From positions 31,954 through 95,953 of the forward strand of contig JAHFMV010000001.1 in NCBI GenBank assembly GCA_023267655.1: DNA of 64,000 nt, given 5' to 3'. Shown here in pieces: positions 12,244 through 63,600 of this stretch. Every line of letters starts with the position of its first letter. Within the stretch, counting starts at the first letter, position 1. Source of the DNA: Candidatus Kaiserbacteria bacterium. GTDB lineage: Bacteria; Patescibacteriota; Minisyncoccia; Phycocordibacterales; UBA2100. The translations under genes were made by a program, and so were the position numbers. The notes below the pieces were generated by a model. That model saw only the letters and a program-made list of their open reading frames with translations, ran no database searches and was not told where the DNA came from.

Positions 12244-12244
12244 A

Positions 12245-12700: not shown

Positions 12701-12707
12701 GCGAAAA

Positions 12708-19592: not shown

Positions 19593-19600
19593 CGTTGCAT

Positions 19601-19726: not shown

Positions 19727-19733
19727 TGGCGAA

Positions 19734-20594: not shown

Positions 20595-21076
20595 ATCTGG
20601 TGCGCAGTGCGAACGACCCCTCGTGATGAAATCTTTTTGAACAGATATCGCATCGTCAATCGCAGCCGTGGATGAACAAGATCGGGCGCGATATCGGTAA
20701 GAGGTGCAAGAACAAATGCGCGTTCATGCATCCGTGGGTGGGGGATCGTGAGTGAGGGAGAATCCATTTGCTGGTCGTCATACAGCACAATGTCGAGGTC
20801 AATGACACGCGGGCCATTGCGAAAAGTCTTCGTGCGTCCGACTGCCTCCTCTACACTCTTTAGATGCGCAAGGAGTTTTTCCGGCGACAAGTCAGTCCGC
20901 ACTCGCACAACCGCGTTGCAGAATGCCGGTTGTTCGCGTACATATTGCGGCTCGGTCTCATAGATCGGCGATAGTGCTTCAACCACCACGCCCGGCTCCA
21001 GCCTCTGTAGAGCTTCACGCATATGACGAGCCCGGTCGCCGAGATTTGAGCCGAGCGCTATGTATACGATCGCCAT
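20591..21076 (-). CDS. folK: 2-amino-4-hydroxy-6-hydroxymethyldihydropteridine pyrophosphokinase (HPPK)
   Basis: MAIVYIALGSNLGD…; GPRVIDLDIVLY; ERAFVLAPL. The stop overlaps the folP start (4-nt overlap). Confidence 0.85.
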   Translation of the reverse strand: MAIVYIALGSNLGDRARHMREALQRLEPGVVVEALSPIYETEPQYVREQPAFCNAVVRVRTDLSPEKLLAHLKSVEEAVGRTKTFRNGPRVIDLDIVLYDDQQMDSPSLTIPHPRMHERAFVLAPLTDIAPDLVHPRLRLTMRYLFKKISSRGVVRTAHQI

Positions 21077-21142
21077 GGACATCAAGCCTATCATTACGCT
21101 GCGATTTTGCGGAAATACCACCGATGCTATAGTGCGGGCACT

Positions 21143-21847: not shown

Positions 21848-21934
21848 CCTTTTATGCATCCTACGATAGGTTTCGAGCGAGACTTCTTCTTGTTGCAGGA
21901 GATCAGGGTGAAAAAGAAAGCCAAGGGGCCGATC

Positions 21935-22912: not shown

Positions 22913-22917
22913 CCGCG

Positions 22918-22950
22918 AGGCGCCGGAGCAATCCGGCGCCGCTTTTTATT
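22918..22950 (+). terminator. rho-independent terminator
   Basis: ggcgccggagcaatccggcgcc followed by gcttttta. Confidence 0.5.
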
Positions 22951-22984
22951 TGCCACTACAGTATTCATACCATATAGTCTATTT

Positions 22985-23203
22985 ATGAGAATTCTTAAAG
23001 CCGCATCCTTTACACTTTTTGTCTTCGGACTCTTGGGATGGCTGTATATCGTCCTCAATTCGGAGATACATCCGTGGACGCTTTCGATGCAGCTCACTCA
23101 TTTTCTGCCGTTTCCGCGCGAGGATACGGCGGGGGAGATTAGTTTTGTCGTGTCGCTCGTTTCTTTCTTTGTTTGGAATCTCGTGAAAGATGGCCAGCGA
23201 TAA
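22985..23203 (+). CDS. small single-TM protein, paralog of 19601-19726
   Basis: MRILKAASFTLFVFGLLGWLYIVLNSEIHPWTLSMQ…. Confidence 0.4.
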   Translation: MRILKAASFTLFVFGLLGWLYIVLNSEIHPWTLSMQLTHFLPFPREDTAGEISFVVSLVSFFVWNLVKDGQR

Positions 23204-43632: not shown

Positions 43633-46218
43633 ATGGCATCCGCTCTTCGCGTAGGTCTTTTTGCGTCGTTACTGTTCGTCGCTTGTGTAATCGCGTATCC
43701 GACTATTTCGCGCGCGACCGGCACCCAAGCAGATCAGCAATGCCAGCCCGGCGGGAAAATTGGCCAGAAGTGCACTGACAACACTCATGGATACAAGACA
43801 CAAGGAAAGTGCGCGTATGTGTACGTCTGCAAAGCAGACAGTGTCCCCAGCAACGAACCACCGCTGTGTACCGGCGGCGGGAAAGACTGTCCCGTTGGCG
43901 GACCGTCACCATCAAATTTCAATCCGTACCCCAAGGCGATCAAAATTGCATCGGGTTCGCCATCCATCCCGACTTCGAGCATCTCTGATCTTGAAAAAGG
44001 AGTCCTTGGTGCTGCATTTGCATCTGATGAAGCGACGCCGACCGACCTTGCAGATTTAAGTGCCTCCGCCAACGTGTCGTTGAAAACGATATTGGATGCG
44101 CAAGGAGAAGACTCGAGCGATGCGCTCGCATTCGTCCCCGAATCATTTCAAAAAGAAACGAGCACGCTTTTTGCAGGACTGCGCGAAAATGCGGTAACGC
44201 TCGGACCCGGGCAAAAGCCAACCGTCGCCGTGGATGCGTTAGGAAATGTGCGTCTCGCGTTTCCATCGAATGATGGCACATCGTTCGGTGCGACTTTCGA
44301 TGCATCCAGCGATGAAAATTCTACCGGCATATCTTTTGCAGACGATCTGATACTCGCCGCCACCAATGCACCGCGGCATTTCGCGCTCGGTTTCTATCAC
44401 GCGGGACAAGCCGCGCTCATGGTTGTGCTTGCGGATTTTTCGAGTGCGCGGGCAGAGTGGAATGTGGCGACCGAAAATTTGACGTCCGCAGCCGAGGATT
44501 TGTGGAATGTACTTCGCGCACTGTGGGAGATGCTCGTGCAGTTTATCCAGCGGTCCGTGACAGCCTATGCACAAGAGGACGATGCAAATGCCGATTGCAC
44601 ACCAGGTGAGTATCGATACGAATACACGAAACGCGACGCTCCGTGTGACAAAGAGAAATGCATGTTGCACGCGCCATGTGCCGGCTCATTTGCGCGTGGC
44701 ATCTGCGCGAGCGAAGGGAAATGCAACGCAACGAGCGTGAAAATATGCGATTCAAATTCGGGAACGTGTTCGTGGACAACGCCGCAACAAACAGCGCTCC
44801 CCGGCAGTACCGCAACGCCAAGCACCCCGCTTCCGCCGCCGGTGACTGGCGATCAGCCGCTTCCGATCAGCCCCGAATTACAAAATGCATTTTCAGATAA
44901 CGCGAAACAACAGGCAGACGCGCAGGCGCGCATCGACGCGGCACAGCAAAAATTGATGGAAGCGTTCAATAATTTGCAAAATGATCCGCAGAATTATTCA
45001 GCGCGATTTGACGACGTACGGAGCGCACAAAAAGAACTGTTAGATGCGCAGCGTGCGCTCAATCCGACACTCAAAGATTACCTGCTGCAAAATGTCGCGC
45101 CGCGCATGACGCCGACGGAACTTCTGCCTGACGGGAATTCAGCACCGATTATGCGGTATGAATGGATCAACAATCTCGGTTCAGCGCCTGCCCCGTTCGA
45201 GGCCGTAGGCTCTCAAACGGGGTTCGCGCCGTTTAAGGTGGCGCAATTAGGAGACGGCCCACCGATTCCGCTGTTGTCCGACGAAGCGCTCCAGAATGAG
45301 CTCGAACTGCGTAAGCTTTCGATCGACGCGGCAAATGAACTTCGCGGCGGCATGTATGCACCGAATGGCGTCAGTCCATTTTCCTTTGCACCACCCGGTT
45401 CGCTCACTATGCCGCCGGAAGAGCCGCTCACGGTGACAAACTATTCGTTTGATTCGATCAGCGATGCGGTTACGGCTGGCGTGAAGTGTCTCTTTGGCAC
45501 GTGTCCGACGCCGCTTTCTAATTCAGTGCCATTTGGCGGTTTAAATTCCATTGCAGATTTCGGACTGACCGAGCCGTTTGTCGTGAGCGGTAATTTAACC
45601 GAGCCACAGACGCCACCATGGACAGGCGAGACCTCGCTTACCGAACCCGAATTGAAAAAGCTGCTTGAGCAAGAGGGAAAGGGTCCGCCGCTTCCTACAG
45701 CGCCCACACCGACCGAGACCGCGCAACCTTCACCGAAGCCGCAAAATCCTCAGACACAAACGCCGCAGCCGACTCCACAACCACAAACTCCAGAGCGACC
45801 GGCAACACCAAGCGCCGCTCCGTCAGGTAAAACGAATGCGGGCACGGGCGGATTTTCATTACAGTCGTTGCTGCCATCACTCTGGAGCGTTCTCGCGAAT
45901 CTTTTTAACTATCTTCGAGACGGAAATGCGGCAAATACCAATCCTTCAACCCCTCAAAATCCTCCAGCACCCGCCCCCACCGCATCGCTCTCAATCGATC
46001 CGTCGCGCATTTCAATAGGCACCGTCACGCGCCTCATGTGGTCGTGTACGAATGCCGATTCCAGCGTCATCTATCTTTCCGATGGCACCGCCTATATTCG
46101 CGACGGTGTAAACGGCACTGCGACCACCTCACCGCTTTCTGTCACCACCACTTTCCGCCTCGTCTGCTCGGGCCACGGCGGCTCCGCCGAAAATTCTTCG
46201 ACGGTCACGGTGCAATAA
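43633..46218 (+). CDS. secreted 861-aa Cys-rich / Pro-rich protein with a C-terminal Ig-like domain shared with the 5021-aa giant
   Basis: Signal peptide MASALRVGLFASLLFVACVIAYPTISRATG. Cys-rich N-terminal modules. The C-terminal ~85 aa SLSIDPSRISIGTVTRLMWSCTNADSSVIYLSDGTAYIRDG…TFRLVCSGHGGSAENSSTVTVQ parallels …VTLTAKPTSVDSGKTAQLSWSGENIANCTIYGPG…FGIACSGSDGTSITSATVTVKV in the giant. Confidence 0.7.
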   Translation: MASALRVGLFASLLFVACVIAYPTISRATGTQADQQCQPGGKIGQKCTDNTHGYKTQGKCAYVYVCKADSVPSNEPPLCTGGGKDCPVGGPSPSNFNPYPKAIKIASGSPSIPTSSISDLEKGVLGAAFASDEATPTDLADLSASANVSLKTILDAQGEDSSDALAFVPESFQKETSTLFAGLRENAVTLGPGQKPTVAVDALGNVRLAFPSNDGTSFGATFDASSDENSTGISFADDLILAATNAPRHFALGFYHAGQAALMVVLADFSSARAEWNVATENLTSAAEDLWNVLRALWEMLVQFIQRSVTAYAQEDDANADCTPGEYRYEYTKRDAPCDKEKCMLHAPCAGSFARGICASEGKCNATSVKICDSNSGTCSWTTPQQTALPGSTATPSTPLPPPVTGDQPLPISPELQNAFSDNAKQQADAQARIDAAQQKLMEAFNNLQNDPQNYSARFDDVRSAQKELLDAQRALNPTLKDYLLQNVAPRMTPTELLPDGNSAPIMRYEWINNLGSAPAPFEAVGSQTGFAPFKVAQLGDGPPIPLLSDEALQNELELRKLSIDAANELRGGMYAPNGVSPFSFAPPGSLTMPPEEPLTVTNYSFDSISDAVTAGVKCLFGTCPTPLSNSVPFGGLNSIADFGLTEPFVVSGNLTEPQTPPWTGETSLTEPELKKLLEQEGKGPPLPTAPTPTETAQPSPKPQNPQTQTPQPTPQPQTPERPATPSAAPSGKTNAGTGGFSLQSLLPSLWSVLANLFNYLRDGNAANTNPSTPQNPPAPAPTASLSIDPSRISIGTVTRLMWSCTNADSSVIYLSDGTAYIRDGVNGTATTSPLSVTTTFRLVCSGHGGSAENSSTVTVQ

Positions 46219-46273
46219 TATACGTGTAGTGACAATGTATTGACATACCACGTAACGAGTATATACTCGCCAT

Positions 46274-46546
46274 ATGACCACTATTCAAATTCGTATCGAC
46301 GAAAAGACGAAACGCAAGGCGAGCAAAGTATTTGGCAAAATGGGGCTCAACGTTTCGAGCGGTATCAAGGTGTATCTTACCCGTGTCGCACAAGACGAAG
46401 CGATGCCTTTTGTGGTACGTACTGAAAATGGCTACACCCAGGAAGAAGAGCGACAGTTGATCAAGGAAGCAGAGTATGCGGAGAAACATGGTAAGCGATA
46501 CACCTCTGCCCGCGAGGCTCTGGACGATATTTTACGTAAGAAATAA
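46274..46546 (+). CDS. dinJ: RelB/DinJ-family antitoxin
   Basis: MTTIQIRIDEKTKRKASKVFGKMGLNVSSGIKVYL… (IRID.E.K..A, GL..S.AI..FL pattern). The promoter TTGACA-N16-TATACT lies directly upstream. Confidence 0.7.
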   Translation: MTTIQIRIDEKTKRKASKVFGKMGLNVSSGIKVYLTRVAQDEAMPFVVRTENGYTQEEERQLIKEAEYAEKHGKRYTSAREALDDILRKK

Positions 46547-46553
46547 AGAAATT

Positions 46554-46835
46554 ATGTATTCGCTGGTTTTTGCGGCAAAAGCGAAGCGATCATTACGGAA
46601 ATATAAAAAGAGCGGGATATTTCCACAGGAAAAATTTGAGGCGGCGGTCGCTCTCTTGTGTGTGGGGAAACCTTTGCCGCCCTCATACGATGATCATGCC
46701 CTCAGAGGTGAGCTGGTGAGTTTTCGAGAATTCCACCTCGGGTATGACCTTCTGGTCAAATATCGGCGGCGTGCTGAATTACAAGTCATTAACATCGTTG
46801 CGATAGGAACCCATAGCGAACTTTTCGGCGGTTGA
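46554..46835 (+). CDS. yafQ: YafQ/RelE-family mRNA interferase toxin
   Basis: …LLCVGKPLPPSYDDHALRGELVSFREFHLGYDLLVKYRRRAELQVINIVAIGTHSELF matches YafQ blocks (PLP..Y.DH.L.G…R.LHI..D.LL.Y…GTHS.LF). Confidence 0.7.
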   Translation: MYSLVFAAKAKRSLRKYKKSGIFPQEKFEAAVALLCVGKPLPPSYDDHALRGELVSFREFHLGYDLLVKYRRRAELQVINIVAIGTHSELFGG

Positions 46836-46845: not shown

Positions 46846-47118
46846 GCGCTCTCAACATCCCCATGAAGCTGCGCCATTTTGCGGCGCAAAAACGTACTCC
46901 ACCCCGTGAGATAAGAGTGTAAAAATTTTGTAAAAAAATAAGCGGATTGATATACCCAAAATGTGGCGGTCTAAGGCAATCGTCGCTATCTCACGGGGTA
47001 TAATACGAGTAATGATAGGCGCCAACAGGGCTACAGCCCGCTCCGCTCGCCCGAATAGGGCCGCGTATTTTCGTGTGGGCACAACTCTCTTTTTTGCTGT
47101 TTATTCCGCGTTCATTTC
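46846..47118 (+). repeat. copy A of the giant-gene 5' leader/start module (promoter plus signal-peptide start), with two internal insertions and a truncated ORF
   Basis: gcgctctcaacatcc…gcgccattttgcggcgcaaaaacgtact…tataatacgagtaATGataggcgccaacaggg…ggccgcgtattttcgtgtgggcacaactctcttttttgctgttt aligns with 48532-48670. It encodes MIGANRA…AAYFRVGTTLFFAVYSAFISRF and then a stop. Confidence 0.7.
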
Positions 47119-47160
47119 TCGATTCGATGTTGATAGCTTTGCATGGTATACTCATAGTCA

Positions 47161-47391
47161 ATGACTAAGACGCTCGAAATAATCCTTGAAAAAGCATCCG
47201 CATGGCCAAAGGAAGCCCAAGATGAGCTCGTGCGCGCTGCCAAACAGATCGAAGAAGCGCAAAGCGCGAGTGCGTATACGGCGACAAACGAAGAACTCAA
47301 GGCGATAGACGAAGGGTTATCGCAAATGAGGCGTGGAGAGTTTGCTTCTAAGAAAGAAGTCGATGCATTTTTCAAAAGTCGCAAGCCATGA
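47161..47391 (+). CDS. putative antitoxin (addiction-module component) paired with the downstream RelE/ParE toxin
   Basis: 76 aa, acidic, helical; ATGA overlap with the toxin gene. It is preceded by TGgTATACT with an 8-nt spacer before the ATG. Confidence 0.5.
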   Translation: MTKTLEIILEKASAWPKEAQDELVRAAKQIEEAQSASAYTATNEELKAIDEGLSQMRRGEFASKKEVDAFFKSRKP

Positions 47392-47738
47392 GAGTTGAGT
47401 ATTCGTCGCGTGCACTTAGTGACGTGCGCGCGATTTTCGCGTATACCTATGGACGTAATCCAACGGCAGCCCGGCGGGTGAAGGTGTATATCAAGCAGGC
47501 GGCAACCAAACTGGGCGATATGCCGGGGAAGAGTGTAACGCTTAAACAGCGTCCTGGTGTCAGTCGAATTGTGCTGACACGCTACCCATACGCGTTGTAT
47601 TATGCGACCGAGGCTGACACGGTCGTTATACTCCATATTCGGACAGTGCCCGAAAACTACCAAAAACAAAGGATTTTTAAGTCGAGCTTTCATGCGGCTC
47701 TCAACACCTTCCCGAAGGTGCGCCATTTTGCGGCATAA
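47388..47738 (+). CDS. RelE/ParE-family toxin
   Basis: …RYPYALYYATEADTVVILHIRTVPEN… matches the RelE/ParE C-terminal block (Y.I.Y….V.IL.I.H). The ORF reads on into repeat copy B. Confidence 0.65.
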   Translation: MRVEYSSRALSDVRAIFAYTYGRNPTAARRVKVYIKQAATKLGDMPGKSVTLKQRPGVSRIVLTRYPYALYYATEADTVVILHIRTVPENYQKQRIFKSSFHAALNTFPKVRHFAA

Positions 47739-47790
47739 AAACGTACTACAATACGAGTAATGATAGGCGCGAACAGGGCCGCGTATTTTC
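47694..47790 (+). repeat. copy B of the giant-gene 5' leader/start module (truncated ORF MIGANRAAYFLIW…*)
   Basis: The 70-mer gcgccattttgcggcataaaaacgtactacaatacgagtaatgataggcgcgaacagggccgcgtatttt at 47719-47788 is identical to 48557-48626. Confidence 0.8.
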
Positions 47791-47820
47791 TCATATGGAA
47801 AAGCAGTGCGTCGATGTTCT

Positions 47821-48189
47821 CTAGTTCTTGTTTCCGAAAGTCCGAATACGGCCCGGTTCAATGATGAAGCCGTTGCCTCGCAAAGATTCCGGAGTCTGAC
47901 GTCCGAAGAATTCCTTACATTCGCGGATCAGGGACTCTCGACTAAAATTCTCAACATATACGATGATGAGACCTGCCGTGTCAGCGGGATCGAATGTACG
48001 GATGTCACCGAAACCATGATCGGAAGTAAACAGGATCAATTTGTGCTCACGTGCATGCTGAAAGATCGTCGGATCTGGTGCCGTGGCCAGTTCGATGTCG
48101 CCGGTGTACGTCAGATCAATGTTGGAAAGTTCTCGCAGCGCGTCCCGCAAATCGCGGTTGATACACTGGTCCGCGAGGACGTGGAGCAT
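47821..48189 (-). CDS. DUF5615-family PIN-like (Mut7-C-like) nuclease, toxin partner of DUF433
   Basis: MLHVLADQCINRDLRDALRELS…LILFTSDHGFGDI… matches the DUF5615 pattern. Confidence 0.6.
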   Translation of the reverse strand: MLHVLADQCINRDLRDALRELSNIDLTYTGDIELATAPDPTIFQHAREHKLILFTSDHGFGDIRTFDPADTAGLIIVYVENFSRESLIRECKEFFGRQTPESLRGNGFIIEPGRIRTFGNKN

Positions 48190-48195
48190 ACCGCG

Positions 48196-48429
48196 TTAGG
48201 CGTGCGCAACACGGGCGAGAATCTGAGCGGGGCTCTCAAGAACGCCGCTCGCGAACTCGATTGCGGCATCGACGTCTTCTTTAGTAATGCCTTCATATTG
48301 TCCGGGAATTTCGTCGAGAGCATAACCGGCGCGGATAAGATTGAGAATATCGGCAACCGCGATGCGCGTCCCACGGATCGTAGGTTTCCCAAAGCGAACG
48401 TCTCCATTGATGGTGATGCGTTTGTTCAT
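48196..48429 (-). CDS. DUF433-family protein, antitoxin partner of DUF5615
   Basis: ITINGDVRFGKPTIRGTRIAVADILNLIRAGYALDEIPGQYEGITKEDVDAAIEFA matches the DUF433 consensus. Confidence 0.65.
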   Translation of the reverse strand: MNKRITINGDVRFGKPTIRGTRIAVADILNLIRAGYALDEIPGQYEGITKEDVDAAIEFASGVLESPAQILARVAHA

Positions 48430-48531
48430 GGCAGGAAGTATAGCATGCGCTCAGGTGTACAACAAAGGCTTCTCAGCTGTGTGGTTGGACAATGGAGACT
48501 TAAACAGATACAAAATCCGACATTCGGGATA

Positions 48532-48670
48532 ACGCTCTCAACACCCCACAGAACCTGCGCCATTTTGCGGCATAAAAACGTACTACAATACGAGTAATGA
48601 TAGGCGCGAACAGGGCCGCGTATTTTTGTGTGGGTGCAACTCTCTTTTTTGCTGTTTTTTGTGCATTCAT
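48532..48670 (+). promoter_or_regulatory. native 5' leader/promoter and start of the 5021-aa gene (copy C of the triplicated module)
   Basis: TTTTGCGG…TACAAT then acgagta then ATG at 48597. The -10-like hexamer sits only 7 nt from the ATG, which implies a leaderless or near-leaderless transcript. Confidence 0.55.
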
Positions 48671-51600
48671 TTTAATTTCAGGAACAGTGGATGCGCTTGG
48701 GACCGCGAGCGGAAGTGCGGGTAGCGGAGCGGATAAAACATGCAAATGGAATCCGACGACAAAAAAGTACGAAGATAACGGATGTATTGCAGAAAAAGGG
48801 AAGTGTAACGACAAAGGAAAATGTGAACTGCAAAAAGATTCAGGAGGGGCTGCAAACTGCAAAGACGCTGCAGGGCAAACTGGCTGCGGAGGACTTAATC
48901 AACCCGGGAGCGTGCAGCCCGCGAGCCAACCTTCAACGCTTCAACCAACTCCGTCGATTTTGGACAATCCGCTCCCGCCGCAACCCTCGACAATTGATCC
49001 GACAAAGGCATTTAATGACTCGAGCGCATATAACGATCCAAACGCTTTGACTCCGGCGACAGAAAACAAACCTATCTGGCAACGCGCATGGGACTATCTG
49101 ACCAAGCCTCAACCCGTACCCGCGTCTCCGGGTTATATCAACGGATCTGAAGATTTTGGTGCGCCATCAGGTAGTGATGCGAAAACGTTGCAGCCGGTGA
49201 ATCCGCTGGACGCAAACGACCCGCGAAATCAACTCGTCCCTCCGCCTGGGCAACAAGGAAGCACGTTCGGGCCCGATGAATCTGGGATGATAACTGGTTC
49301 AAATGAAATAGCTGATGCATCGTACCTGGATCGGATTGAAAAGAAAATAGCCGATTCCGCGGAGAAATTCGTTAATTGGCTGACAGCACCGGCCGAGCCG
49401 GTGTACGGGCCGACGGACTCGGGGGAGCAATTGAAGCAGTCTCCATTTCCGCAGCGAGAAGTATATCAAGACGCCGATGGAATGTTCAGGTATCGAGATA
49501 CGGGCGAGCTTGCCTCGGAAACAGACGTGGCACGAGTGCCTTCGGAAACATCCAAACCCTTTGAAACTCGTCCGCCGGAAGAGCTTACAAAACCATACGA
49601 CGATGCAGTCGATAAACTTCGGGGTGCGCGGGAGAAATATGTCGACGAATTAAAAAAGATTGAAGGGTATCAGAAACAAGCCGAAGCTGATGCGGCGAAG
49701 CTTCAAGCGATGAAAGATAAAGGAACCCAGACGGTACCCTACGAAGGAGGTGCAACGAAGAATATAAATGATGCAATCCGAGACAACAATGCACGACTCG
49801 AGCGTATCGCGAATGCTTATAACGATGTCGACGGCCGCATTAATGGGATCGATGATCGTATTGATGCGGCAGCAGTCGGTAAGCAAGATGCAATAGATCG
49901 ATGGGGAGCACTTCAGGACGGAACGAAGCCAACGCTCGCTTCCGAGGTTAATGCCGCGGCGTTTCGGGCTCTCGATAAAATGACTGCAGATTTGAATGCA
50001 CAATATCCTGACGAAATGACCGGATCGGTATCGCCGGAAGGATACAATAAATTACAAGAAGGCTTGCAAAAGGTGGAGACGCTTCGCGAAGTTGTTGCTG
50101 CTCCACCAGGTAATCGACCCGACATCGTTCTTCAAGTAGAACGATTCAAATACAGCGCCTATTTTGCGGAAGCGCAGCAGAACGCGAAAGAACTCCAAGC
50201 AGAATATAATCGATTGACAGCACTCGATGGTCTTGAAGGGGGATCATCACCGGAAACGCTACGCGCAAAAGCCTCGCTCGCGGCGGCGCAAGAAGATTTA
50301 AAACAGCGAACCATCATGGCGGTCGGTGTGAGCGAGCTCTCGCGACAATATCAGGATTTGCAAGGAGCAGCGCTTGCAGCAGCACAAGGTACAGATTCTA
50401 AGGTCCTCGAAGATATTCAGGCAAGAATGGCAAAAATCGAATCAGTCATTCCGCAACTCCAGATGGGAGATATTGCGCCCGATCCGCGGTACGCGGAACT
50501 CCAAAAACAACTGCAACTTGAAGCAGAAAATATTTCGAAAATCGCTAACGCATCATCGTTTCAACCTGATGGGAGTATTTTACCCTCGTCTGACCTTGCT
50601 GATGCGCAAAAAAGGCAGGCTGACCTACAGGCGGAGTTAAAAAGTATAAACGGAACTCTGTACAATCGGTTAGAGAATTTAGCCGTGGGTCGCGCATTGG
50701 AAGACGCGCGTGTTCAGCAGGTTCGGTACGAATTTGGAAATGCGGCAAACGCACCAAGCCTCAAGGATCCGACGGCACTGAAGGCATCGGATTGGTATAC
50801 TCTCGCGGGAATTTCAGGTAATCAGGTAGGACATATTGCAGACAGACTCTCGGACATTGCCACCAATGACGCCGTAACAATACTTCAGCACAATCCCTTC
50901 GAATTTAACACTGGCAATAAGTTCCTCGATTTCTTTGCAAATCAACCAGCTGGAATTTACGAATCATTCGCAAATGTCTTTTCACTTGGCAAGTTGTCGA
51001 CGGATCCGGCGCAACAACTTGGGTTGTATACGGGCACGGAACAAGCTATCAAATACGGTATTGATGGGGTAAATGTCGGACTGACCCCGTTTCTCATACG
51101 CGACATTGCGGCTGTTACTGTCGGTCTTGGTAGACTTGGTTACGAAGGCTTGGCTGCCCGACTTGGCACCGAGGATTTGAGCGCGCTTGAAATTGCCTCA
51201 GCTGCGGATGCTCGACTTCTCGGAGAAAATCTCGCGCGAGCAGAAACACGCGTGCTGGATTCGACGGGGCTAGCTGATTACGGCGCGAACGTTGCCGCGC
51301 GTGATCTTGCCGTGCAAGAGCTTAAACAAGCAAACCTCGGGCTCAGCGTAAAAGGCGACGTTGTCGATCTGAATACAGGCCAGACGCTCTCGTTCCGCGA
51401 TGCAGCGGGCCGATATTCGGAAATAGGATCTGCGGAAGCTGATGCCGTCGCAGCCCTCCGAACCGAAGAACTTCGTCCATCGGTATTCTCAAAAGACTTT
51501 TATACAAACTTGTCAAATGACGTCAGAAACTTTTTTGCAAAGCCCACCGACGAGCAGTTACTGGCAAATGCAGAGACTCGTGTACAGTCGCTAGAGCGAA

Positions 51601-54600
51601 TGAATACAGAACTCGACAAGCGAGCAACGATTGTGGAAGGGAATCGTGGGAAAGCTACGGAACAGGCGACCGATACGCTGAGGTCAGATCCAAAGTTTAC
51701 GCCAGATCGGCAGCAAGTAAGAGATATTGCCCGTCGCGATGCGGAATTGACCAGTGCGCGCTTAAAAGAGATTGAGGCACAAAAGATTGCAAATAATGAA
51801 GCACTTGTTGGTGCCCGAGAGGAATTGGCGCGGTTGCAAAAGCTCGCAGAATCACGGCAACCATCAACAGCACCGGTGCGTGATACCGCCGAACGAACAG
51901 AATCAGCGGCCGGCAGGCCTGCGGCGTCTGTCGAACCATCGTCTCTGCCTCCAACACGGTTGCAGCAATTTGCAGGCGATGTACGTGCATATCTTGCCGA
52001 TCGGATTCCAACACCACTGCAAAACGCATGGGCCGCGGCTCGTGACTGGTATGCGAATGCTTCTCTGGTCCCTAGACCTTCAGGCGGTTTTGCACGTGTA
52101 TTAAATATTGGGGCACTTGCGTCGCAGTTGTTAGGTACGCCACTGCCCGGACTCGCGGCACGAGAATCGACATCGCTTGGTCAGAGCGCGAGTAGAGTAG
52201 TTACTACACAAACTGGCCGCGAAGTATTTTCTGGAGGACGCGTAGTCATTGAACGGCAAATTTCTCCTTTTGATTTTGGTGCAGAATTTCGAGAACCGGT
52301 GGCTCCGACGGTACGGATAGGTGAGCTAAGCGACGTCACGACTCGACCGGTAGGTGAGCTGAGAGAGACGCCACCGGTTCGCAATGGTGATTCTTTGTCT
52401 CCGTCAGAAAATGCGCCGACTGCTCTTGAAAACGGTGCAGTACCGCGAGAAGTGCTTCCGGGAACACAGATTTCTGTTGACCAAGTAACACCTGCACCAA
52501 TACAGTCTCCCCCCACGTCTCCCTTTGCGATTGTCGCGCCAGCACTTACGGCGAATCCATTTTCGAATCCAACGGATTCGGCTGCCCCTTCGACAGTAGA
52601 TTTCACCACTGGAATTGATATTGCCCGCGGGCTGCCGTCAAATCCGTTCCTTTCGATTGATGGTTCCACGGTCCATATCGATATTCCAACAAACGTAAAT
52701 TCGCGAAGCGTTTCGCCGTTCTCGCTTGCTATTGCACCCGGAATTGTTCTCGCACCGATACCTGCGGCGCCCGCGCCCGTAGTTAACCCGAGAAATTCAG
52801 AGGATCAAGTGGCGCCAAACGGGCCTCAAGTTCCTGCAGCACCTGCGCCTCAAGCCAGCCGAAATGGTTCGCCAGCCCCTTCTCAAATCGCACCAACCCC
52901 CGCCGCAAATCTTGCCCCGCCCGTTCCTTCGTCGATTGCTCCCGTCACTAATCAACCAGTTCTCCTCGCACGGCGACTTGCGAATTGGTGGAATAACACA
53001 CCTCAAACGGGTGCAAATCCGACCCCACAATGGATACGGGAACTGATCTTTTATGCGACAGAACCCTATCACTACTATGGGGCCGATCAGATCAGTCTGA
53101 ACAACGCGATTCTAGGTATCACTTCAGGCCAACATTTCACCCTGTCTCCCGATTTTTATAAAAACGACAAATCTCTCGGGAGGAATACGCCGGAATATGT
53201 ACAAGGTCTTCTTGACCCATGGCGAGTATATCTGGGACTGCCGCAGCTTTATGGCACGTTGTCTGTATCGCAGTTTAAGCCGACTGTTAATTCAGGCGAC
53301 CAACAAAATAAGCAATATTACAAAATCAATAACTTCCTGGATAATTACGCAAAAAATAGCACCATATCACAGACAAGTGCAGAAGCCATTAAAATAATGG
53401 TCAACCAAGTCCAGCTATTTGGTAAAAAGACCGGTACAGGGCTTTCAGTTATTGAAAATGATTTCGGCCAAAGCGGAATTATGGGTGGCTATACTCTTTC
53501 GCTCGGCGAAGATGCCAGTGGGAAATATATTTCGTACTACGACAATTGGAAACTGGCATCGAGCGATGGAAGGGGTTCCCTTGAAGGCACAAGCGGCCTC
53601 GTCGGCACGCCATTTGAAATCTACGACCGCATTTATTACAACCCCGACACCTTTGAACCGATCACCGATGTAAATCTCGCAAAAGCGACGGCGGCTGATA
53701 CCGCACTTCTTGCCTCCGGCGACTTCGGCGTCGGCGCCGCACAGCCTGCGACAACTATTGCAACACTCCCGATGCAAACTCTGTCATTCCTCCCGATTCT
53801 GCAAGCTGTTACGCAACCACTCACCTCGGCCGTGGGAAATATATTTAAAATCCTCGCCAACAACGTCATCTCAACCCCCGCCCAAGGTCAGCCGGCACAA
53901 ATCAACGCGAACAATGCATTTGCTCTTGCAAAACCAACGGACGTGGCGCAGTTGAATCAGTATCTGGTGAAAAGTCCGCTCGGACTTCTGGGCGGAAGAC
54001 TTGAAGCAGGGATGGGCGAAGCGGTTAGTATAAGAATAAATCCGACACCCAATCGATGGAATGCGAGCATGGGAGATTACGGCCAATATATTGCAAATGT
54101 TCTTAGAGCAGCCGGCGATCCGCAAGCGAGCTATAATCCATCGACACAAAGACTCACGCTATCGCGAGGTCTCAACAACATTACCGTCACGGGGCTGTTG
54201 AGATTTGCAACGGCACTTAAAGATCAGGGAATCACCTTCGGTCTTCAAAATGCCTTTCGTGACGAGGCGGCGCAGCGAGCGGCGGGAAGCGATCCTGCTG
54301 TCGCGAGCGATCATCCGCTTGGCAGAGCAGCCGATGCTGATTTGCGTTGTAATTCCTGCAAGGGCACCCAAGGATCTTCGGAATGGAAGACCGACTTTGA
54401 AAAGCGAATCATGAAAGCCGCGATTACTGCCGAGGTTCAACAAATAGACATGTACGGTTTTGGTGTTAGAGATACGAGTCTTGGCGCGAAAAATCTTGTG
54501 TATGCGGTGCATGTGGGGTGGAGTGAGTTTAGAAACGGTGGCATCGAGTCGACAGGCGCATTCGCAAATACGCATCGCAATGGATATGCGGGGGCGCAAG

Positions 54601-57600
54601 TGGGAGTGCCGGGGACGCTCTCCGGCGCAACGGCGCAAGATCCAGAAGCGCAAGCACTGTGGAAACAACTGAATGACGCATCGCGTTTGCCAAAAGATTC
54701 AGCGTCATTATATGCGGCGATACAAAAACAAGATGCAACACAATTAGTCGCTCTGCTTTCAAAGCAGCCGAAACCGATACAGCCGACGTATGCCAGTTTC
54801 TTTAGACCTTCTTCAGCTCCGAAAAGTGCATATGATAAGGCGATCGACCTGGGGTACAACCTTAGCGGAATGAAAGATCTCGTCATTGATCCTGATGGGT
54901 TTGCACGCAATGGCACATTTCGTATGAGCCTCATTAAAGCCGCGGTCGGTCTCGACGGACTGAATGGTGTGAAAGTAGGGCAAGGTGGCGAAAAATACGT
55001 GAAATTCAAAACGCCGGGTCAAGGTCTTGCGGCAGATGTGATTTTGACTCAAGGGTATATTGCGATCGGCCTCAATACGCCACGCAAGATTGCAATGGGG
55101 GGGTACCTAGCGTCTGATCCGGACCATCCTGTTTCTGAAGCTGATATGCCAAAAGAAATAGTAGCATATCTTACGCGACTGAAAACAGGCGGAGGCGAAC
55201 CAGACGTAGTCCTAGATCCAAATAATCTCGATCAGCTTATCCGTAATGCCGATGCACGAGCGTGCGCTGAAGAAGGACAGTTCGGTTTTTGCACTGGTTC
55301 GATTCGTTCGGCAGCGGATAAGGAAGAAGCAAAGAAAATAGTTGCACGCGCAGCGGTCATAACGCAGTTACAACCCGAGTTTACGCCGAACGCGATTCCA
55401 AAGGGTCCCGTTGCTGCTGCGCAATTGCCACAATTGAAGCCCGCGACTATCGCGGCTCTCGATGGTAAGCCGACACAGCCGGCTGGTCCGCAAGTGACCG
55501 AGTCAAAAGCAAAAGCGGCAGCCGATGCAGGGGTTGCAAAAAAAGCGGCTGAGGCAAAAGCGGCTGCAGACGCAAAAGCGGCGGAAGGGGCGAAAATTCT
55601 TGCCGATGCGGCGGCGAAACCAAGCTTGCGCGATCGTGCAAAGGAAATTGCAGAGCGAATTGATACGAATGAGCAAAAAGCAAAACTCGCGAATAATGCA
55701 AAGACATTTACCGACCTTGGTATATCCGCAAAGATGATCACGAACAGCCCGTGGCAGACGACACTCATGTCAACGTATGGATATACGGGAGATCGCAGCG
55801 CGGGATCAATAAAGACTGCATCGGGTGTGATACGAAACAACACTTTATACTCTGTTGCTCACAAGACCCTCGACTTTGGCACAATCCTTGAAGTAGAACG
55901 CGAAGCTGGAGGAAAAGTATATATTGAATTAGCGGTGGTCAACGAACGCGGACCATACGTCGCGGGGCGCGGATTAGACGCAGTGCCCGCATTTTCAAAA
56001 GCAATGGGACTTTCTGGCGATCGCAACGCTGACGTCGTTGAAGTGCGATTTCGCATCGTGGGGCAACTTGTTGGATCCGGATATAGCAACAGTATCGCTG
56101 GCTTCAAGCCCGAACAGTCGAAACAATTGATCGCCGGTCTCCAGCTCGGTCCTTCTGCCCCCAACCTCCCCGGGGAAAGGGTTGCGGAAAAAGCTCGTGA
56201 GACGGTGCCGAAGGTTGTGGAAGTTGCGAAGCGGGAAATCGGAAAGATTGCGGGGATTGCGCGACCGGCCTCACCGTCGCGCTCGGCGACGCCGGACATT
56301 TCGGTTGTGACGCCTGTTCTCACCCGCGTTGTACAGCAAGGTGTTGATGCAGGAAAATTGCCGACGGACTTAATCGTTTCGCTCGATAATGGAGCACTGC
56401 GCGGGCTCTCGGCTTCCAAACCCGATCTCACATTCACTTTTGACGTGCGCGGTGCGAGTGCCGGCCAATCAATCGCGAAATCACAATGGGAATTTGCTCG
56501 CAATTATTCCAGCGACGCATCGAAGCCCGAAGGCCGTATTTACAGCAAAGATGAATACAACCAATTTGTCGCACAAATACAAAAAGATGGTGGTCCGAGC
56601 CTGATCTCATTTGATAGCTTGCCGCCGGCCGCACGACAACTCGTTGGCACGACTCCAAAAAGTCTTGGTGGTGTAAAGCTCGGGCTAAGCAAAGAAGCGA
56701 TTGTGAAGCAGTCAGCAGTGTATTTTGCTATACAGGAACTTTCTGGAAAGAAAGTAGCCATCGGACCGTCGATGCTTCGCCCTGACGTGAATACGTACAG
56801 CAGCAGGCAATCTGCACATGGTCCCTTGGATTCGAATCCTCGTTCGCGATTTACCGCGATGGATCTCTTCATAGCACCGGAATATATGGATACGGCGATC
56901 CGGCTCGCGAACAATATTGGTATCCGCGGTATCAATATTTATGACGGTACGTATGATCAAGTTGGGCCGGGGTACAAACAAATTCATCTCGATATGGGTT
57001 CCGTATGGACAGGTACCGCGAGCCGTACCTATAGCGACTTGAAAATCCGCACGATGCTTCTCGCGCATGCTGCGGGTCAGAAACTCTCACTTTCGGACCA
57101 AGTCGTCGCATACATCAACAACAGCAAGCCAGTGCCTGCAAGTGCGCAGCAGATTGTCGTACTACAATCGTCTATCTTGGCAGGAAAATCGATCGTTGCT
57201 GGCTTGAGGCCATCGAGTGCCGAAGTCTTTACGTACACGCTCGCGGCAGATGATCCTGCGCTCGCACAAGGTGTGCTCGCGGCAAAGGCGCCAGCTTCGG
57301 GAACGCCCGGTAATCCACTTTCCATCGCATCGCTTGGCGATTATCTGAAAGCCAAAGACATTGCTTTCACTGAAATAAAACCTGATACTGATGGCAGTTT
57401 GATTGTGATTTTGCAGAATGGTACTCAAATCCCCGTGCAGCAAACGGCGGCAGCAACACAAGCCATTACACTCGAGCCAGAAAAGAATTATTCATTGAGT
57501 TATTTGCGTTCATTGAATCAGCCTAGCTTGAAACTTTTCCTTTCCGCCGCGAATGGCGTGTCGGGTGATCGGTTTATCAACGGACGAATGCTAGGTGTCG

Positions 57601-60600
57601 TCATGCCGATTATCGCTGAATACAATACGAAATTTGGCTCTCCGCCGATTATCAACGGTATCGGCCGCAGCCCCGCGGTTAATTCGGCAGTCGGCGGTGC
57701 TTCTAACAGCGATCATCTCACTGGTCGTGCGATCGATTTCAAGACCGTTGATCAGCCATCCGATCGAGTCGCCGCGCTTATTAGCATGCTACGAGCGAAA
57801 AACATTGATCTCATCACAAGGACGCACGGACAAGGTCCGCATACGCACGCTTCTCTGCGACGGGCACCGACTGTACAAGAGCTGGCAAACTTAAGGTTCC
57901 AAACATCGGCGCAACCACAATATGCACTCATTAATCCATCCACCAACCAAACCATCGCAAGCTTCACGCCGAAAGACCTTGTCGCACGACCAGTTGTGGT
58001 TGTCGCAGGCTCTGGTGCACCATCGGTAGCGCCACAATCGCCTGCGATCGCATGGCTGACGCAACGCGGAAATATCATTGCGAAAAATTTGAATACCGTG
58101 CGAAGCGCTGTAGGGCTCGGCGGATCATCGGCACCAGCGCAGACTGCACAGAATGTCCCGCCGCAAACACCGCAACCACAACAAGTCGCGCAACCGACAG
58201 TCGTCAAATCCGAGTTTAATACAAGTTTTACGAGCGCGCCCAAAGCAGGCCATCCCGTATTCCTTTCTGCACCCGCTGGCCTCAATCCGAACCAGAAAAT
58301 ACTCAAAGTAGTCTATTTGCACGGCGACCTTGAATCGACATTTCCACTCACTATCGTACGACAACGCGTATCCGAACAGGTCGTTGGCTCTGATTTGAAT
58401 GCGGTGGCAATTGCTCCGTATTTTGGTTCCACCGTTGCAAATAACGTCGGCCGATTTGATGGACAGGGAGCGTTTAAGAGTTTCCTTGCAGAATCGGATC
58501 AAAAACTTGCTGCCTTGACCGGTCTTCCTGTCAGCGCGTTTTCCGGAGGTCCGGTCGTCATTGTTGATTACAGCGGTGGATACGGGCCGCTTGGGGCGGT
58601 GATTGCTCGCGGTGATGCCAATGATCTCGTGCAAGGAATCATCATGATGGACGCGGGGTATGGGGTGAAAACAACACTCCCGGCGGTCGCGGCGTGGGTC
58701 GCACAGAACCCGTCGAAATTCCTCGTCAGTGCCTACACCGGATCAACCGCAAGCGGAAATGCCGTTTTGAAGAACTTGTTGGGGAACAAACTTACCACGA
58801 CCGCTGCGCTTCCGGCAGGCGAGACTATGAGGCCTGGTACGGTTGCCGTGATTAAGGCGCAGGGAACTTCGCTTACGCCGCATCGGAATTTCGTTACGAC
58901 GGCGGGCGTGACGACGGGAGGAAAAGAAGATCCGATCACCGCGCTCTTGAAGATTCTCCCCGCATCGAGCGGCGCCGTCGCGCGTGCGCCTACCCCGCCG
59001 TCGAGCGAAGTTGCTGTCGTCAAACCACCAGCACCGGCGCCAATACAAGCCGGTGGTGCTCTGCCTGCGGCGAGACCACCGACTGAAGGGCAAGCGCCGA
59101 CTCTTTTCGAGCAGATGTATACCTGGTGGCTGCATTCGCGTGACGTGTGGAATGAGAAAATAATGAGTCGCCTTGCACGTGCGCCGCAGGCTCCAGTGGC
59201 ACAAGCGCCTACACCACAAGTGGTAACGCCTGCGCCAACAGCACCTGCTCCTTTGCCACTACCTACGGCGCCTGCAGCGAAACCCGCACCGACCGCACCG
59301 GCAGCAATTCCCGCGCAAAAACCAGCCGCTCAAACGCCGGCGAAAGGGAACGCAAATACGCAGGCGCTTCAAGAACAGATCACCATTGCGCAACGCGCAC
59401 TTGAAGCTCTCCGCGCGGCACGAACGGCAAGTCAAGGTTCGCAAACTCAAGCGGTAGCTCAACAGGCTCGAAGCGCAGCCGCGCAGCTCATCACCGCGAC
59501 CGACAAGATTGCAAAAAATCCGGAAGTTTCTGTGCTCTCACGCGACGCACTCCGTGTTCAACAACAATCAATGACCACGAATCGTGGAACGCTCGAGGGT
59601 GCCGTTTCGGCCGGAAATATTTCTGGTGCACAACGCGCCGCCGACCGTATTGATTCCGCAGCGACACAATTCCTGACGACTGCACGAAGCGCCGCGCAAG
59701 CAGCTGCATCGCGAGCACAGTTGCAAGCAACAGCCGCAAAGGTACCCGGTACAATACTTGTCTTTGCGGGTACTCCGGCAAATGCATATGACACGGTGAC
59801 GCGACGCTTCAACACAGTTGCACCAGTCATTGTCTCACCGTTTGGGTACGCTTCTTCGATCGAGTCTGCATATATCGCGTCTCTCGGCGCCCGACAACTT
59901 CGATATGGAGAAAATGCATCGCTTGAGCAACAAGTTGCTGTCGCGCGAGCACGAGAGATGGGGTTAGAGTTTATGATGAAGCGCTACTTCGGGATCTCCT
60001 CAATTGCTGAAATGCCTCTTTCACCAATTAACGGATACTATTTAAGTGCCGAGCGAGCGGATTATCTCGAGGCGCGAGCAGAGAGGGTCAATTTGGAAAT
60101 ACAACGCACCCAAGGGGAAATACAAGCATTGACACTATTGCCGCAGCGCTTCACCGACCCCGTCTTGCGCGCGCGCTTTGATGCGCTTGCAAACCAATTG
60201 GCAGCACAGGAAAAAGATTTGGCAGATACCGAAGCGATGAAGACGCTCGCGTATGAGAATTTCCTCAAGGAACGTGCGAAGAAATTCAGTTCGCGTGCAG
60301 ACTTACTTTCGAAAATCCAGATACGGAATGCCGATTTGGAAGAACGTATCGGGATTGGGTATCAAAATATTAATGTGAAGATCGCCCAATTTGACTTGTC
60401 AACGAAAGCAACCATTGTCGATGTTCAAATTGACCGCGATATTCTCAAGCGTGTCGACGAAGGTACATTAACGCTTGGGCCTGTAAACCAATCAAGCGAC
60501 GCGTTGGGTATCTTTGAACGCTCACTCGCATGGGTGGCAAACAAAATAAATGGACGTCAAACGCCAATTGCCCAGGCGCCGCAAGAGCCGATTGGTATCG

Positions 60601-63600
60601 GCCCGAACGGCGAATATATTTATCCGAGCCTGCAGAGTTACGATACCGGCGCGCCACAATATGTACCGTCAGTCGCAGAGACAAAACCAACGACTCCCGC
60701 GCCAGCGACCCCTAAAATAGTGCCGCCTTCTCCGGCGCCAACCATTTCGAAACCTGCACCTGTGCCTTCAGCGAAACCTACGACCTTGCCGAATAACCCG
60801 GTGATCAGTCTGCAGACCAAGGTTAATGGTGTATACGTTACGGCACAACGATTAGTGAATTCTGGGGACGCCATGGCAGCAGCGGGCGCTGCGAAGAATT
60901 GGAGCGGCGTGCAAGCAGCTAATGCGTCGCGTAAAGTCATTTACAATACGATTCGGGCACAACTAGTCACGGCGATGAACGACTCTTTGACCCCAACGGC
61001 GGTGAAAGAAGAAATTGCCGCACAATTGAGTCGCGCCGACGCCTATAACAGACCTCTGAATGCCGATGCGCGACTCTCCGAACTCGGCGTATTTTTCAGC
61101 GGTGTCGATGCTGTTGCAAACCGCATGGCCGTGAATGGTCTTGGATTCAAGAGTGCGGTCAATACCGCGGTATCACTCGCTGATCGTCTTGTTACTGATG
61201 CGACCAATGAGGCCATTGCGAACCAGACGCTTCCGCCGGAAACCGTAACCGGCATTATGGGGCGTCTTACAGAGGCGAAGACACTTTTGGAGCAGGCGGA
61301 AAAAGATGTAGAAGTGGCACGGGACGCGGGCAATTTAGCAGGTGTACGTCTCGCGCAAGATCGCGTGAGTAAAATCGTAAATACGCGTATAGCGCCTGCA
61401 GTGCGCGAGCTTGTCGCTCTTCCTGAAGTGCTGCCGACGAATAAAGAGATCATGAATACAAGACTTGTGGAGGCACTTGGAAATGTGGCGGAGATTGATA
61501 CCGGACTTACGTCATTTGCCTCAAAGTCACCACTGGAAAAAGCAAAGGCGCGCGATGACCTTGCTGCGACCCTCTCGGTAGAGGCACAAGCTCTCAAACA
61601 AAACTTGACGGCATTACGTGGCCCTGATGCACTGGTCATGCTCTCGTCAATCCCGACAAACACATTACCGGCTAAAATACAGAAAGAGATCCAAGACTTG
61701 ATTGCAGCCACGAAAGAGATGTCGGCAGCACAGAAAGAGCTCGAAGATGCGGGGAACCTCACAGATGAGGGGGCGCAAAAGACAGCGGCGATTGCCGCGA
61801 ACGTAAAATTTCAAAAGGCATTCACGGCGCACGACCTTGCGGTTTCAAATCTGATTGCAGAGGACTTTATTTCTATTGAATTGATTAGTCAGATTGCTGG
61901 TGCGGTGGACATCATCGCCGGCCAGATGACGCAAGTCAACAATTTACTTGGTGGCGGAAATGTTTTCACCCTTGCCGGCTTTAAGATAAGCGGCGTACCG
62001 ACTAACATTTCCGCACAACTGATAGGTCTCGTCCTCGCGGTCCAGCAGAACACGGCGGAGATCAACCGCGGCCTTGCTGATGCCGTTCGTGCAAAATTCA
62101 AGCTGGGCGGAATTTCAACAGGCGATTTGAAATTTAGCGGTGTTGCACCAACACCATCATCAAATCTCGATACGGCGATCGTCGTGAGCGGTGGAGGCGT
62201 TGCGGTGTCCGGAACCGGTTTTCTCTTGTCGAAGTATGGTGGTGCAATTCTCGCCGCTATAAAGAATGGGTTGCAGGCTACGATTGCTCGAATAACGCCA
62301 GCTCCACGCGCTCAAGTCATTCCTGCAAATGTCGGCGTGAAAAACCCTGCGGGTATTACAAAGTTGGTATCTCAACTGGGAACTACCCCAGCGAACCCGA
62401 CACCGAACCCCGCAACAAATCCGCAACCAGCACCGACTTCTCCAGCCGCGACTAAGCCAGGGACAAGTGCGCCGACACCGGCGGCACCTGTGCCGGCAAA
62501 ATCCCCAACGTCGCCGATTCGACGGATTGCATCGCAAATGAAATCGTCTGCGGAAAATATTCTTAACAAATTTAAGACCGGAACGAATGCTGCCGGTGCA
62601 GGCACTCCTCCGGTTCAACTAGAGCTACCTCTTGAAGGTGGAAGTACGAATACAAAAACATCAGCGCGAACTTCGTATGTACGAAACGCATGGGATGCGT
62701 GCAAGCGGTATCCAATTATCTGTGGCGGCTTGATTGTTGCAGGCATTGGCACGCCGCTCGCGCTTCTTGTCACCGATTGGGATTCGAGCCCGCCCGCAAC
62801 CGCAAAACCTGAAGCAGAAACTGCCACGCCTCCAGGCGCTTCGCCAGATGCATCGAAACTGCCGCCTGGTACTCCTGATCCGAATGCGGGGAAGAATGCC
62901 CCGAATCCGGGAGCGGCAAAAACCGGTCCAACGGGGAATGGTTCCGATGCAAGTAAAGATGGAAAATCTGCCTCTGGAGGCGGTGCGGGTGGACTCGGAA
63001 ATCTTCTCCAGAATGCTCTCAAAGCACTGGCACCTATCTTGCCGCAATTGTGGAACTCACTCTTTGGACCGAAACCACCGGAGACGCCGAAACCTGTCGT
63101 GCCGAGCGTCACACTGACTGCGAAGCCAACATCGGTTGATTCTGGAAAGACCGCGCAACTTTCATGGTCAGGAGAAAATATTGCGAACTGCACTATCTAT
63201 GGCCCGGGAAATTCCACGCTTACTTCCGGCGGTGTGAGTGGCACGGTTGCGACGCCAGCGCTCAAGCGATCGAAAGAATTCGGCATCGCATGCTCCGGAT
63301 CGGACGGGACATCGATCACGAGCGCGACGGTGACGGTGAAAGTAAATGGCGATAGCCAGACGCCGATCTCTGTCGTATTTCCCGATGGTTCTTCGAGTGG
63401 TTCGTCACTCTCAACCCCGCAACAAGGAACGCAAGGAACACCAAATGGTCAGGGAACGACACAAAACCAAGGGACGGGTGGCACGCCCAACGTCGGTACC
63501 AACGGGGGGACGAACGAAGCGCCCGTGACGCCACCAGTTACCGGGCATGATGATAAGGGAAATAACGTGTCACCGTATTGCGACCCTGGCCTGCCGATGG

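Follow-up and report, generated by a model that had tools for sequence, protein, structure and literature searches.

Homology-facilitated illegitimate recombination (HFIR) joins incoming DNA by homology at one end and illegitimately at the other, carrying foreign neighbours in, and PMC3240628 describes it for Acinetobacter baylyi, Streptococcus pneumoniae and Pseudomonas stutzeri. Here, we compare this and other described systems with a locus in 64,000 nucleotides (nt) of DNA from Candidatus Kaiserbacteria bacterium (the window; contig JAHFMV010000001.1 of assembly GCA_023267655.1, positions 31,954 to 95,953), in which the promoter and first codons of a gene for a protein of 5021 amino acids (aa), the giant gene, are present three times (module copies A, B and C) with toxin-antitoxin (TA) pairs between the copies. 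The likeness to HFIR, a homology-anchored end combined with an illegitimate end, would account for truncated resident gene ends beside imported cargo. Unlike in those cases, the process is deduced here from comparative sequence only and several scars appear to be stacked by repetition; since the donors would be homeologous alleles of the same locus, the scar resembles a duplication. Patescibacteria have been reported to carry comEC/pili genes for DNA uptake and genes for homologous recombination (PMC12455944).

The minimal mobile elements of Neisseria, as outlined in PMC3787668 (citing Saunders and Snyder 2002), hold variable content between conserved flanks of closest relatives and are exchanged homologously after DNA uptake, with cassettes lacking mobility genes. 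The variable content and the cassettes without mobility genes recur here, and the exchange after uptake would be shared as well. Unlike in Neisseria, the right flank is a promoter/start island of ~100 nt and not a whole gene, the gene behind the island is also exchanged, and stumps are left. In the orphan cdiA-CT/cdiI and rhs-CT/rhsI modules of contact-dependent growth inhibition (CDI) and Rhs systems, a new module displaces the old gene end, which stays adjacent in the same orientation and keeps its homology to the main gene, arrays grow by repetition, and the repeats permit later recombination (PMC4927057, PMC3967940). These features are like those proposed below, but the displaced piece in CDI/Rhs is the 3' toxin end with its immunity gene, while here it is a 5' promoter/signal-peptide end and, elsewhere in the window, ordinary 3' ends. 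Moreover, the TA pairs are independent predicted type II operons unrelated to the giant gene, which sets the locus apart from a CDI/Rhs array.

Vibrio superintegrons with TA cassettes (PMC3856429) likewise place small TA operons, split by a repeat, beside a fixed expression point. No integrase was found in the window or within 10 kb in the relatives, and no attachment (att) sites of the attI or attC kind; unlike in integrons, what is repeated is the promoter and start of the gene itself, without attC-like symmetry, and the cassettes stand in either orientation. Insertion of a transposon or insertion sequence (IS) does not fit either, with no transposase among the open reading frames (ORFs) scanned and no inverted repeats at the cassette ends. 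Unlike transposon target duplications, the repeats are 43-140 nt long and 6-24% diverged, and the second module copy of the related strain L005 has foreign flanks. In streptococci, CIME-type elements (cis-mobilizable elements) accrete in tandem at repeated att sites, direct gene-end repeats parting inserts without recombination genes of their own. In contrast to these, no integrase or conserved att core was identified here, and the stump ends vary.

Three copies of the gene start

A sequence-only reading of the window had described the gene start as triplicated, and all three copies were confirmed (Table 1). An antitoxin/ParE pair (TA1) lies between A and B, a DUF433/DUF5615 pair (TA2) between B and C, and a RelB(DinJ)/YafQ pair upstream of A; these assignments, made in the same reading, were borne out by Pfam. 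In copy C, the ATG stands 7 nt past the -10 hexamer (leaderless-type) and is followed by the conserved core and by signal-peptide-like codons, from which a signal peptide of the giant gene is put forward on reading of the sequence only. Copy B is 94% identical to C across 93 nt, including an uninterrupted identity of 71 nt (47719-47789 = 48556-48626) where a 70-mer had been noted. It ends immediately 3' of the core (..GCGTATTTT), and its ORF (47760..47864) has the 34 codons and early stop previously described and overlaps the DUF5615 gene in antisense at its 3' end. Copy A matches C in three blocks (46847-46898, 86.5%; 47002-47031, 96.7%; 47052-47102, 92%) and carries the two insertions that had been seen, one of 101 nt, which splits the upstream promoter part from the -10 hexamer, and one of 30 nt. 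Its homology to C fades near codon 28, and its ORF terminates early, at a stop at 47164 that overlaps the ATG of the TA1 antitoxin (ATGA). The sequence-only reading had raised the question whether the copies were equally diverged; they are not, and A would be the oldest and B the newest.

The promoter-like hexamers (TACAAT or TATAAT) are present as proposed. However, a sigma-70 consensus scan called no promoter in the module; the -35 is poor, and the promoter call depends on the TACAAT hexamer 7 nt 5' of the ATG and on its conservation. A terminator scan called a weak 5-bp hairpin with a T-run in copies B and C.

Contigs L001 and L002 match the window at 100% identity. L019, from a different sample (99.7%), runs from A through TA1 and B into the start of TA2, and L021 (99.86%) covers TA2, C and the giant gene; the same arrangement thus recurs in three to four assemblies that are independent of each other. 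The end of Logan contig L002 at 47159, just beyond copy A, might raise the suspicion of a repeat collapsed or expanded during assembly, but such an artefact is practically out of the question, because the other-sample contigs bridge the junctions at 99.7-100% identity and the copies differ among themselves, which collapsed repeats would not.

The upstream box GCTCTCAACA, the -10 hexamer with its leaderless-type ATG and the first ten codons form an island that is near-identical across lineages. Identity between lineages is 82-94% at positions +1 to +33, versus 50-65% in the flanks, and the giant N-termini share 27-36% protein identity. Within the island, a core of 24 nt (window 48603-48626), codons 3-10 (GGC GCG AAC AGG GCC GCG TAT TTT), differs by 0-2 nt among six lineages (window, L003, L004, L005, L016 and L022). 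Three of the four core substitutions change the amino acid, which indicates that the constraint acts on nucleotides and hints at an undescribed regulatory or recombination signal in codons 3-10. A structured RNA (riboswitch, leader or attenuator) was rejected as the explanation, since Rfam gave no module match at E<=1 and the module folds no better than shuffles (z -0.16 to 0.50), with predicted structures that differ by lineage. The box is fixed like the core; its exact copies in the window and the fetched loci are confined to modules, and for this reason it was also rejected as an uptake signal.

Two G(G/C)CGCG hexamers stand 12 nt apart in the core. The variable patch after the box in copy B (47711-47726) is a perfect palindrome, CACCTTC-CC-GAAGGTG, and the Hainich and L022 modules carry TTCATGAA at this position; the patch could be an operator with lineage-specific sequence. 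The 101-nt insert of copy A occurs once in the window and in no other-strain locus, and could be a small element like a miniature inverted-repeat transposable element, or a hairpin insert.

A variable gap and an exchanged giant gene

The 861-aa gene to the left of the copies has a handful of homologues with 43-49% identity, all of which (L003, L004, L005/L016 and L022) share the synteny GroES-GroEL-861aa ... giant gene. Between these same flanks, the gap content differs in six lineages, as in a minimal mobile element or hotspot. The gap of L003 holds no TA pair, one module and one small membrane ORF with a terminator, and that of L004 one TA pair (RelB-like/YafQ), one module and the small ORF. 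L022 has no TA pair and one module, with a deletion running from within the 861-like gene to 4 nt before the box. Three TA pairs (MntA/HepT, a DinJ/YafQ remnant and a DUF433 pair), one module and a small ORF are found in L016/L023 from Hainich, while L005-L008, L011 and L024, also from Hainich, have four TA pairs, two modules, a second small-ORF promoter copy and an IS30-type element. The window has three TA pairs and three modules with nothing else in the gap. The comparison of copy number among related genomes that the sequence-only reading had suggested therefore gives one or two modules per relative.

The exchange itself is visible between the only near-identical pair, the groundwater strains L005 (well H52) and L016/L023 (well H51). 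Over the 1086 nt that end with the last base of the conserved core, L005 and L016 have a single mismatch, against 8 in the 44 nt directly past it. The module at this place heads an intact giant gene in L016/L023 and is cut at ~codon 25 in L005, where the stump is followed by a RelB-like/YafQ pair, the second small-ORF promoter, the IS30-type element, the small ORF, a terminator, module 2 and a giant gene. This inserted block is colinear with the L004 haplotype at ~78% nucleotide identity, and the colinearity begins within a few bases of the stop codon of the 861-like gene. The giant proteins of L005 and L016 are 78% identical in residues 1-100 and share nothing beyond, over 1979 and 2535 aa; that of L016/L023 is mosaic-related to the window and L003 proteins. 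Thus, the giant gene has been exchanged between near-identical genomes with one breakpoint at the conserved island. In L005, an entire haplotype of foreign origin would have been attached by an illegitimate joint within the signal-peptide codons of the resident gene, and the second module would have come with the foreign DNA; that this module has a different giant gene and upstream haplotype speaks for allele import, not target duplication. The unrelated joint (CACTTCCATT|CATAAC) lies 44 nt past the core, and the downstream homologous junction would fall beyond the contigs.

In L022 (1948-2020 and 2016-2966), the 861-like gene breaks off at ~residue 600, with the GCTCTCAACA box attached to it within 5 nt, and the giant gene has an in-frame TAG at codon 316. 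The DUF433-family pair of L016 lies upstream of the module in the same orientation as in the window (33% identity) and gives a hint to the layering of the window. A related DinJ C-terminus (74-76%) is present in L005/L016.

The core motif CGAAYAGKGCCGCGTATTTT was scanned through two big collections. Only one species genome (L011) and one Hainich contig (L016) gave relevant matches, the module was seen nowhere else in the two collections, and the matches in L009, L010, L012-L015 and L017 were rejected as chance in unrelated sequence; with so few relevant matches there is no large locus sample. A profile search with the aligned giant-protein N-termini gave no match at E<=0.001. A sharp common left boundary, which could have been a site-specific sign, was also rejected: A and B show no significant likeness upstream of the box (p ~0.36), and the distance from the neighbouring gene or promoter to the box varies from 4 to 68 nt.

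Origin of the copies

We propose, with a probability of about 0.55, that the extra copies are fossil stumps left by serial import of relatives' haplotypes, each joined homologously at the module and illegitimately at the other end. DNA of a relative would be taken up that holds a TA operon just upstream of its own island and a giant-gene allele behind it. This DNA would be joined by homology within or downstream of the island, and its other end illegitimately inside the resident signal-peptide codons, as in HFIR. The resident promoter and the first 10-28 codons would remain as a stump, with the incoming TA pair between the stump and the new working copy. Two such rounds would give A - antitoxin/ParE - B - DUF5615/DUF433 - C. 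The oldest resident layer would then run from the 861-aa gene through RelB/YafQ to A, with the cut in A near codon 28 and the two small inserts added later; the second layer would be antitoxin/ParE with B, cut at codon 10, and the latest DUF5615/DUF433, C and the giant gene. That the history of the window followed the same logic as L005/L016 is, by analogy, the best reading.

Duplicated gene ends are not restricted to this locus. A whole-window repeat search found five sites in the 64 kb at which a gene end is duplicated around an insert, including the giant-gene site and the two HepT/MntA sites already pointed out in the sequence-only reading (302-369/1148-1215 and 11887-11929/12735-12777). 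At each site, the gene-attached copy is complete and the other copy is cut on the side facing the cargo, and the copies are 76-94% identical, none fully. The one-end-homologous, one-end-illegitimate geometry of import would also explain the 3'-end orphans. Differences between copies by codon position 1/2/3 number 24/15/44, a third-position excess as expected if both copies had evolved as coding alleles.

The sequence-only reading had implied that a TA cassette inserts and duplicates its target. In such an in-place event, the cassette would arrive through a staggered break that is then filled in, or through replication template switching, 40-140 nt of target would be doubled, and the unused copy would decay. 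Local-sequence duplications flank every cargo at the five loci, the cassette borders are tight, and the codon-position differences are compatible with one decaying copy. However, two of the five sites hold non-TA cargo, and in L005 versus L016/L023 the second module came with a different giant gene and a whole haplotype: the left copy is identical up to the core, while the right copy and everything behind it differ. In addition, the copies are 6-24% diverged and yet the orphans retain open frames and homologous stops. No transposase or integrase family was found among the window ORFs scanned or the genes called within 10 kb, and no terminal inverted repeats bound the cassettes. Duplication in place is thus quite unlikely. 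Campbell-type circles would instead carry a TA pair and module that popped out between direct repeats; one RecA crossover with the resident module would return the circle to the genome it came from or insert it into that of a relative, leaving repeat-cassette-repeat with the giant gene kept. The predicted product matches the observed architecture, the 71-nt identity of B and C is above the usual RecA minimum, and the repeats lie at comparable distances from each other, 837 and 849 nt at this locus and 846 and 848 nt around the HepT/MntA cargos. This likeness in spacing is partly coincidence, since A-to-B includes 131 nt of later inserts, and the first module-TA-module array would need a separate origin. 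Moreover, the giant gene behind copy 2 of L005 is unrelated to that of its sister strain, and the recorded assemblies contain neither a deletion variant nor a circle junction. We consider circles unlikely, although less so than duplication in place.

The exact position of the breakpoints could also suggest a site-specific platform, in which the box and the 24-nt core are the attachment site of a recombinase whose gene lies elsewhere and through which TA cassettes or giant alleles move in and out before a fixed promoter and start, comparable to an integron or a Mycoplasma vsa-type site. The core is conserved at the nucleotide and not the protein level (three of four substitutions nonsynonymous), the cut of copy B and the identity tract of L005/L016 both end exactly at its 3' end, copy A has a micro-duplication inside it, and the L022 deletion ends 4 nt from the box. 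Against this, neither the 64-kb window nor the 10 kb around the locus in relatives yielded a recombinase, except the IS30-type transposase of L005, the right ends of the stumps vary (codons 10, 25 and 28), the core has no inverted-repeat arms, and each cassette comes with a promoter of its own and lacks an attC-like element. Besides, homologous crossovers must resolve in the only shared identical stretch, which makes a special site unnecessary to account for the breakpoint but leaves the conservation of the stretch itself without an explanation. A platform of this kind is very unlikely as the source of the copies. The wider proposal, that box, promoter and core serve a recombinase or break-inducing factor for giant-allele exchange and TA loading, the stumps being its footprints, has a chance hardly better than that; if true, Patescibacteria would possess a cassette-exchange system acting on giant genes.

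Several points weigh against serial import. There is no near-identical pair for the lineage of the window, which makes its history an analogy with L005/L016, and HFIR-like import in Patescibacteria is itself deduced from the present comparison. No donor haplotype for the window was found; the homologues of the DUF5615 toxin (63-80% identity) are on contigs of 500-720 nt or have no recorded contig. The 45 nt upstream of C weakly resemble the small-ORF terminators of L003/L004 (p ~0.03-0.06, uncorrected), a likeness to native terminators that is only suggestive. Directly upstream of the 71-nt identity, 6 of 14 positions differ between B and C, and this combination would have to come from a crossover, from a tract of gene conversion or from a patch that is hypervariable. 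Complete operons and tight borders, seen in all TA cargos, are not expected from random illegitimate joints unless trimming or selection followed. The third-position excess is not significantly apart from in-place duplication and decay (estimated p ~0.13), and the codon-position test was set aside, since it does not decide between the two when the working copy, too, is allowed to evolve. Because of these weak points, circle integration and in-place duplication keep their share of the probability for the events in the window.

The stumps may have side effects. Transcription and translation from A may feed TA1, because TATAAT is kept and ORF A ends in ATGA on the antitoxin start. Likewise, B may make antisense RNA across TA2, because its whole promoter is kept and ORF B runs antisense into the DUF5615 gene. 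Decoy promoters and small ORFs, suggested before, are plausible consequences. Recombination between B and C, which are long enough for it, could plausibly delete TA2. Deletions or inversions between copies, which the sequence-only reading had suggested looking for, are absent from the recorded assemblies, and so is a B-C deletion allele. Selection may act against the loss of an active TA pair.

If serial import is true, streamlined uncultivated Patescibacteria would swap their largest surface-protein genes between close relatives, with the conserved promoter/start island of ~100 nt as the crossover anchor and the TA operons near the giant gene as passengers of the swap without a mobility mechanism of their own. 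Stacked stumps would then be a readable record of past acquisitions, and short ORFs repeating the start or end of a neighbouring gene should be annotated as recombination scars, not genes. Stacked 5' promoter stumps with TA passengers before a hypervariable giant gene would be a variant of an already known kind of process.

Toxin-antitoxin pairs and other features

The three TA pairs are paired, small, adjacent and co-oriented genes of known families, the ParE partner being unclassified, and are predicted to be type II toxin-antitoxin operons. Pfam assigned RelB (4e-13) and YafQ (1e-18), ParE (3.8e-9, across residues 3-86 of the TA1 toxin), and DUF5615 (2.9e-12) and DUF433 (8.9e-20); the 76-aa partner of ParE had no family match in Pfam or NCBIfam, and NCBIfam gave no names for the TA proteins. 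The RelB/YafQ promoter is TTGACA-16-TATACT at 46240-46267 (promoter scan 11/12), and a TATACT promoter of TA2 was read from the sequence at ~48437-48465. All TA operons here have a TATACT/TATAAT-type hexamer 6-8 nt before the ATG and no Shine-Dalgarno sequence, and their starts are read as leaderless-type. The final ~14 codons of ParE lie in copy B. The ParE ORF (47388-47738) extends ~25 codons beyond the ParE domain and stops inside copy B, and the native stop may have been lost at the T-run near 47675.

Table 1. Coordinates of features in the 64,000-nt window
Feature	Position	Strand	Details
Conserved 861-aa gene	43633..46218	+	left border of the variable region; GroES-GroEL-861aa synteny
RelB(DinJ)/YafQ operon	46240..46835	+	antitoxin 46274-46546, toxin 46554-46835
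Module copy A (oldest stump)	46846..47118	+	box GCTCTCAACA 46848-46857, TATAAT 46999-47004, ATG 47012
101-nt insert in copy A	46898..46998	.	perfect 12-nt inverted repeats CCCCGTGAGATA at its ends
30-nt in-frame insert in copy A	~47022..47051	+	re-duplicates part of the conserved core; coordinates alignment-dependent
TA1	47161..47738	+	76-aa putative antitoxin 47161-47391, ParE toxin 47388-47738; ATGA overlap
Module copy B (youngest stump)	47694..47790	+	box 47697-47706, TACAAT 47747-47752, ATG 47760
TA2	47821..48466	-	DUF5615/PIN-like toxin 47821-48189, DUF433 antitoxin 48196-48429
Module copy C (working copy)	48532..48672	+	box 48534-48543, TACAAT 48584-48589, ATG 48597
Giant 5021-aa gene	48597..63662	+	copy C is its working 5' end
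Glycosyltransferase 3' end site	302..1215		gene end 302-409; HepT/MntA 427-1090 (-)
1959-aa gene C-terminus site	3133..5777	-	C-terminus 5719-5777, 613-aa PG_binding gene 3614-5455
FAD-oxidoreductase 3' end site	11887..12777		orphan 3' end 11887-11929; cargo 11956-12700
Small membrane ORF 5' end site	19600..23203	+	41-codon stump 19600-19706; intact 72-aa ORF 22985-23203

Peptidase_M15_3 is the sole recognised domain of the giant protein, and its gene is mosaic and hypervariable among relatives. At the glycosyltransferase site, the orphan 3' fragment starts from 1148 and has its own stop. The 1959-aa protein contains Peptidase_S74, and the orphan C-terminal fragment of its gene lies within ORF 3133-3522, downstream of the 613-aa PG-binding gene. 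At the FAD-oxidoreductase site, the true gene end is 12735-12777 (gene 12708..14057, minus strand), and the cargo is an MntA-type gene with a 151-aa partner that had no Pfam or NCBIfam match. Between the membrane-ORF stump and its intact copy are folP, folK and an ATP-grasp gene, and these folate genes (19600-23203 block) look like imported cargo.

In L016, ~490 nt at the truncated YafQ gene (3843-4333) are lacking in L005 and contain two similar palindromic units (GAACGCCCTGYGC...GCRCAGGGAT). The IS30-type transposase of L005 (HTH_38; 14633-15694, minus strand) lies between the second small-ORF promoter copy and its ORF, and is called with 278 aa in L005 and 353 aa in L006/L007. Mismatches between L005 11700-12700 and L016/L023 cluster in the MntA/HepT region, reaching 46 per 250 nt, and the HepT gene is broken in two in L005 but whole in L023 (118 aa); the MntA/HepT region is a second mosaic patch in the hotspot.

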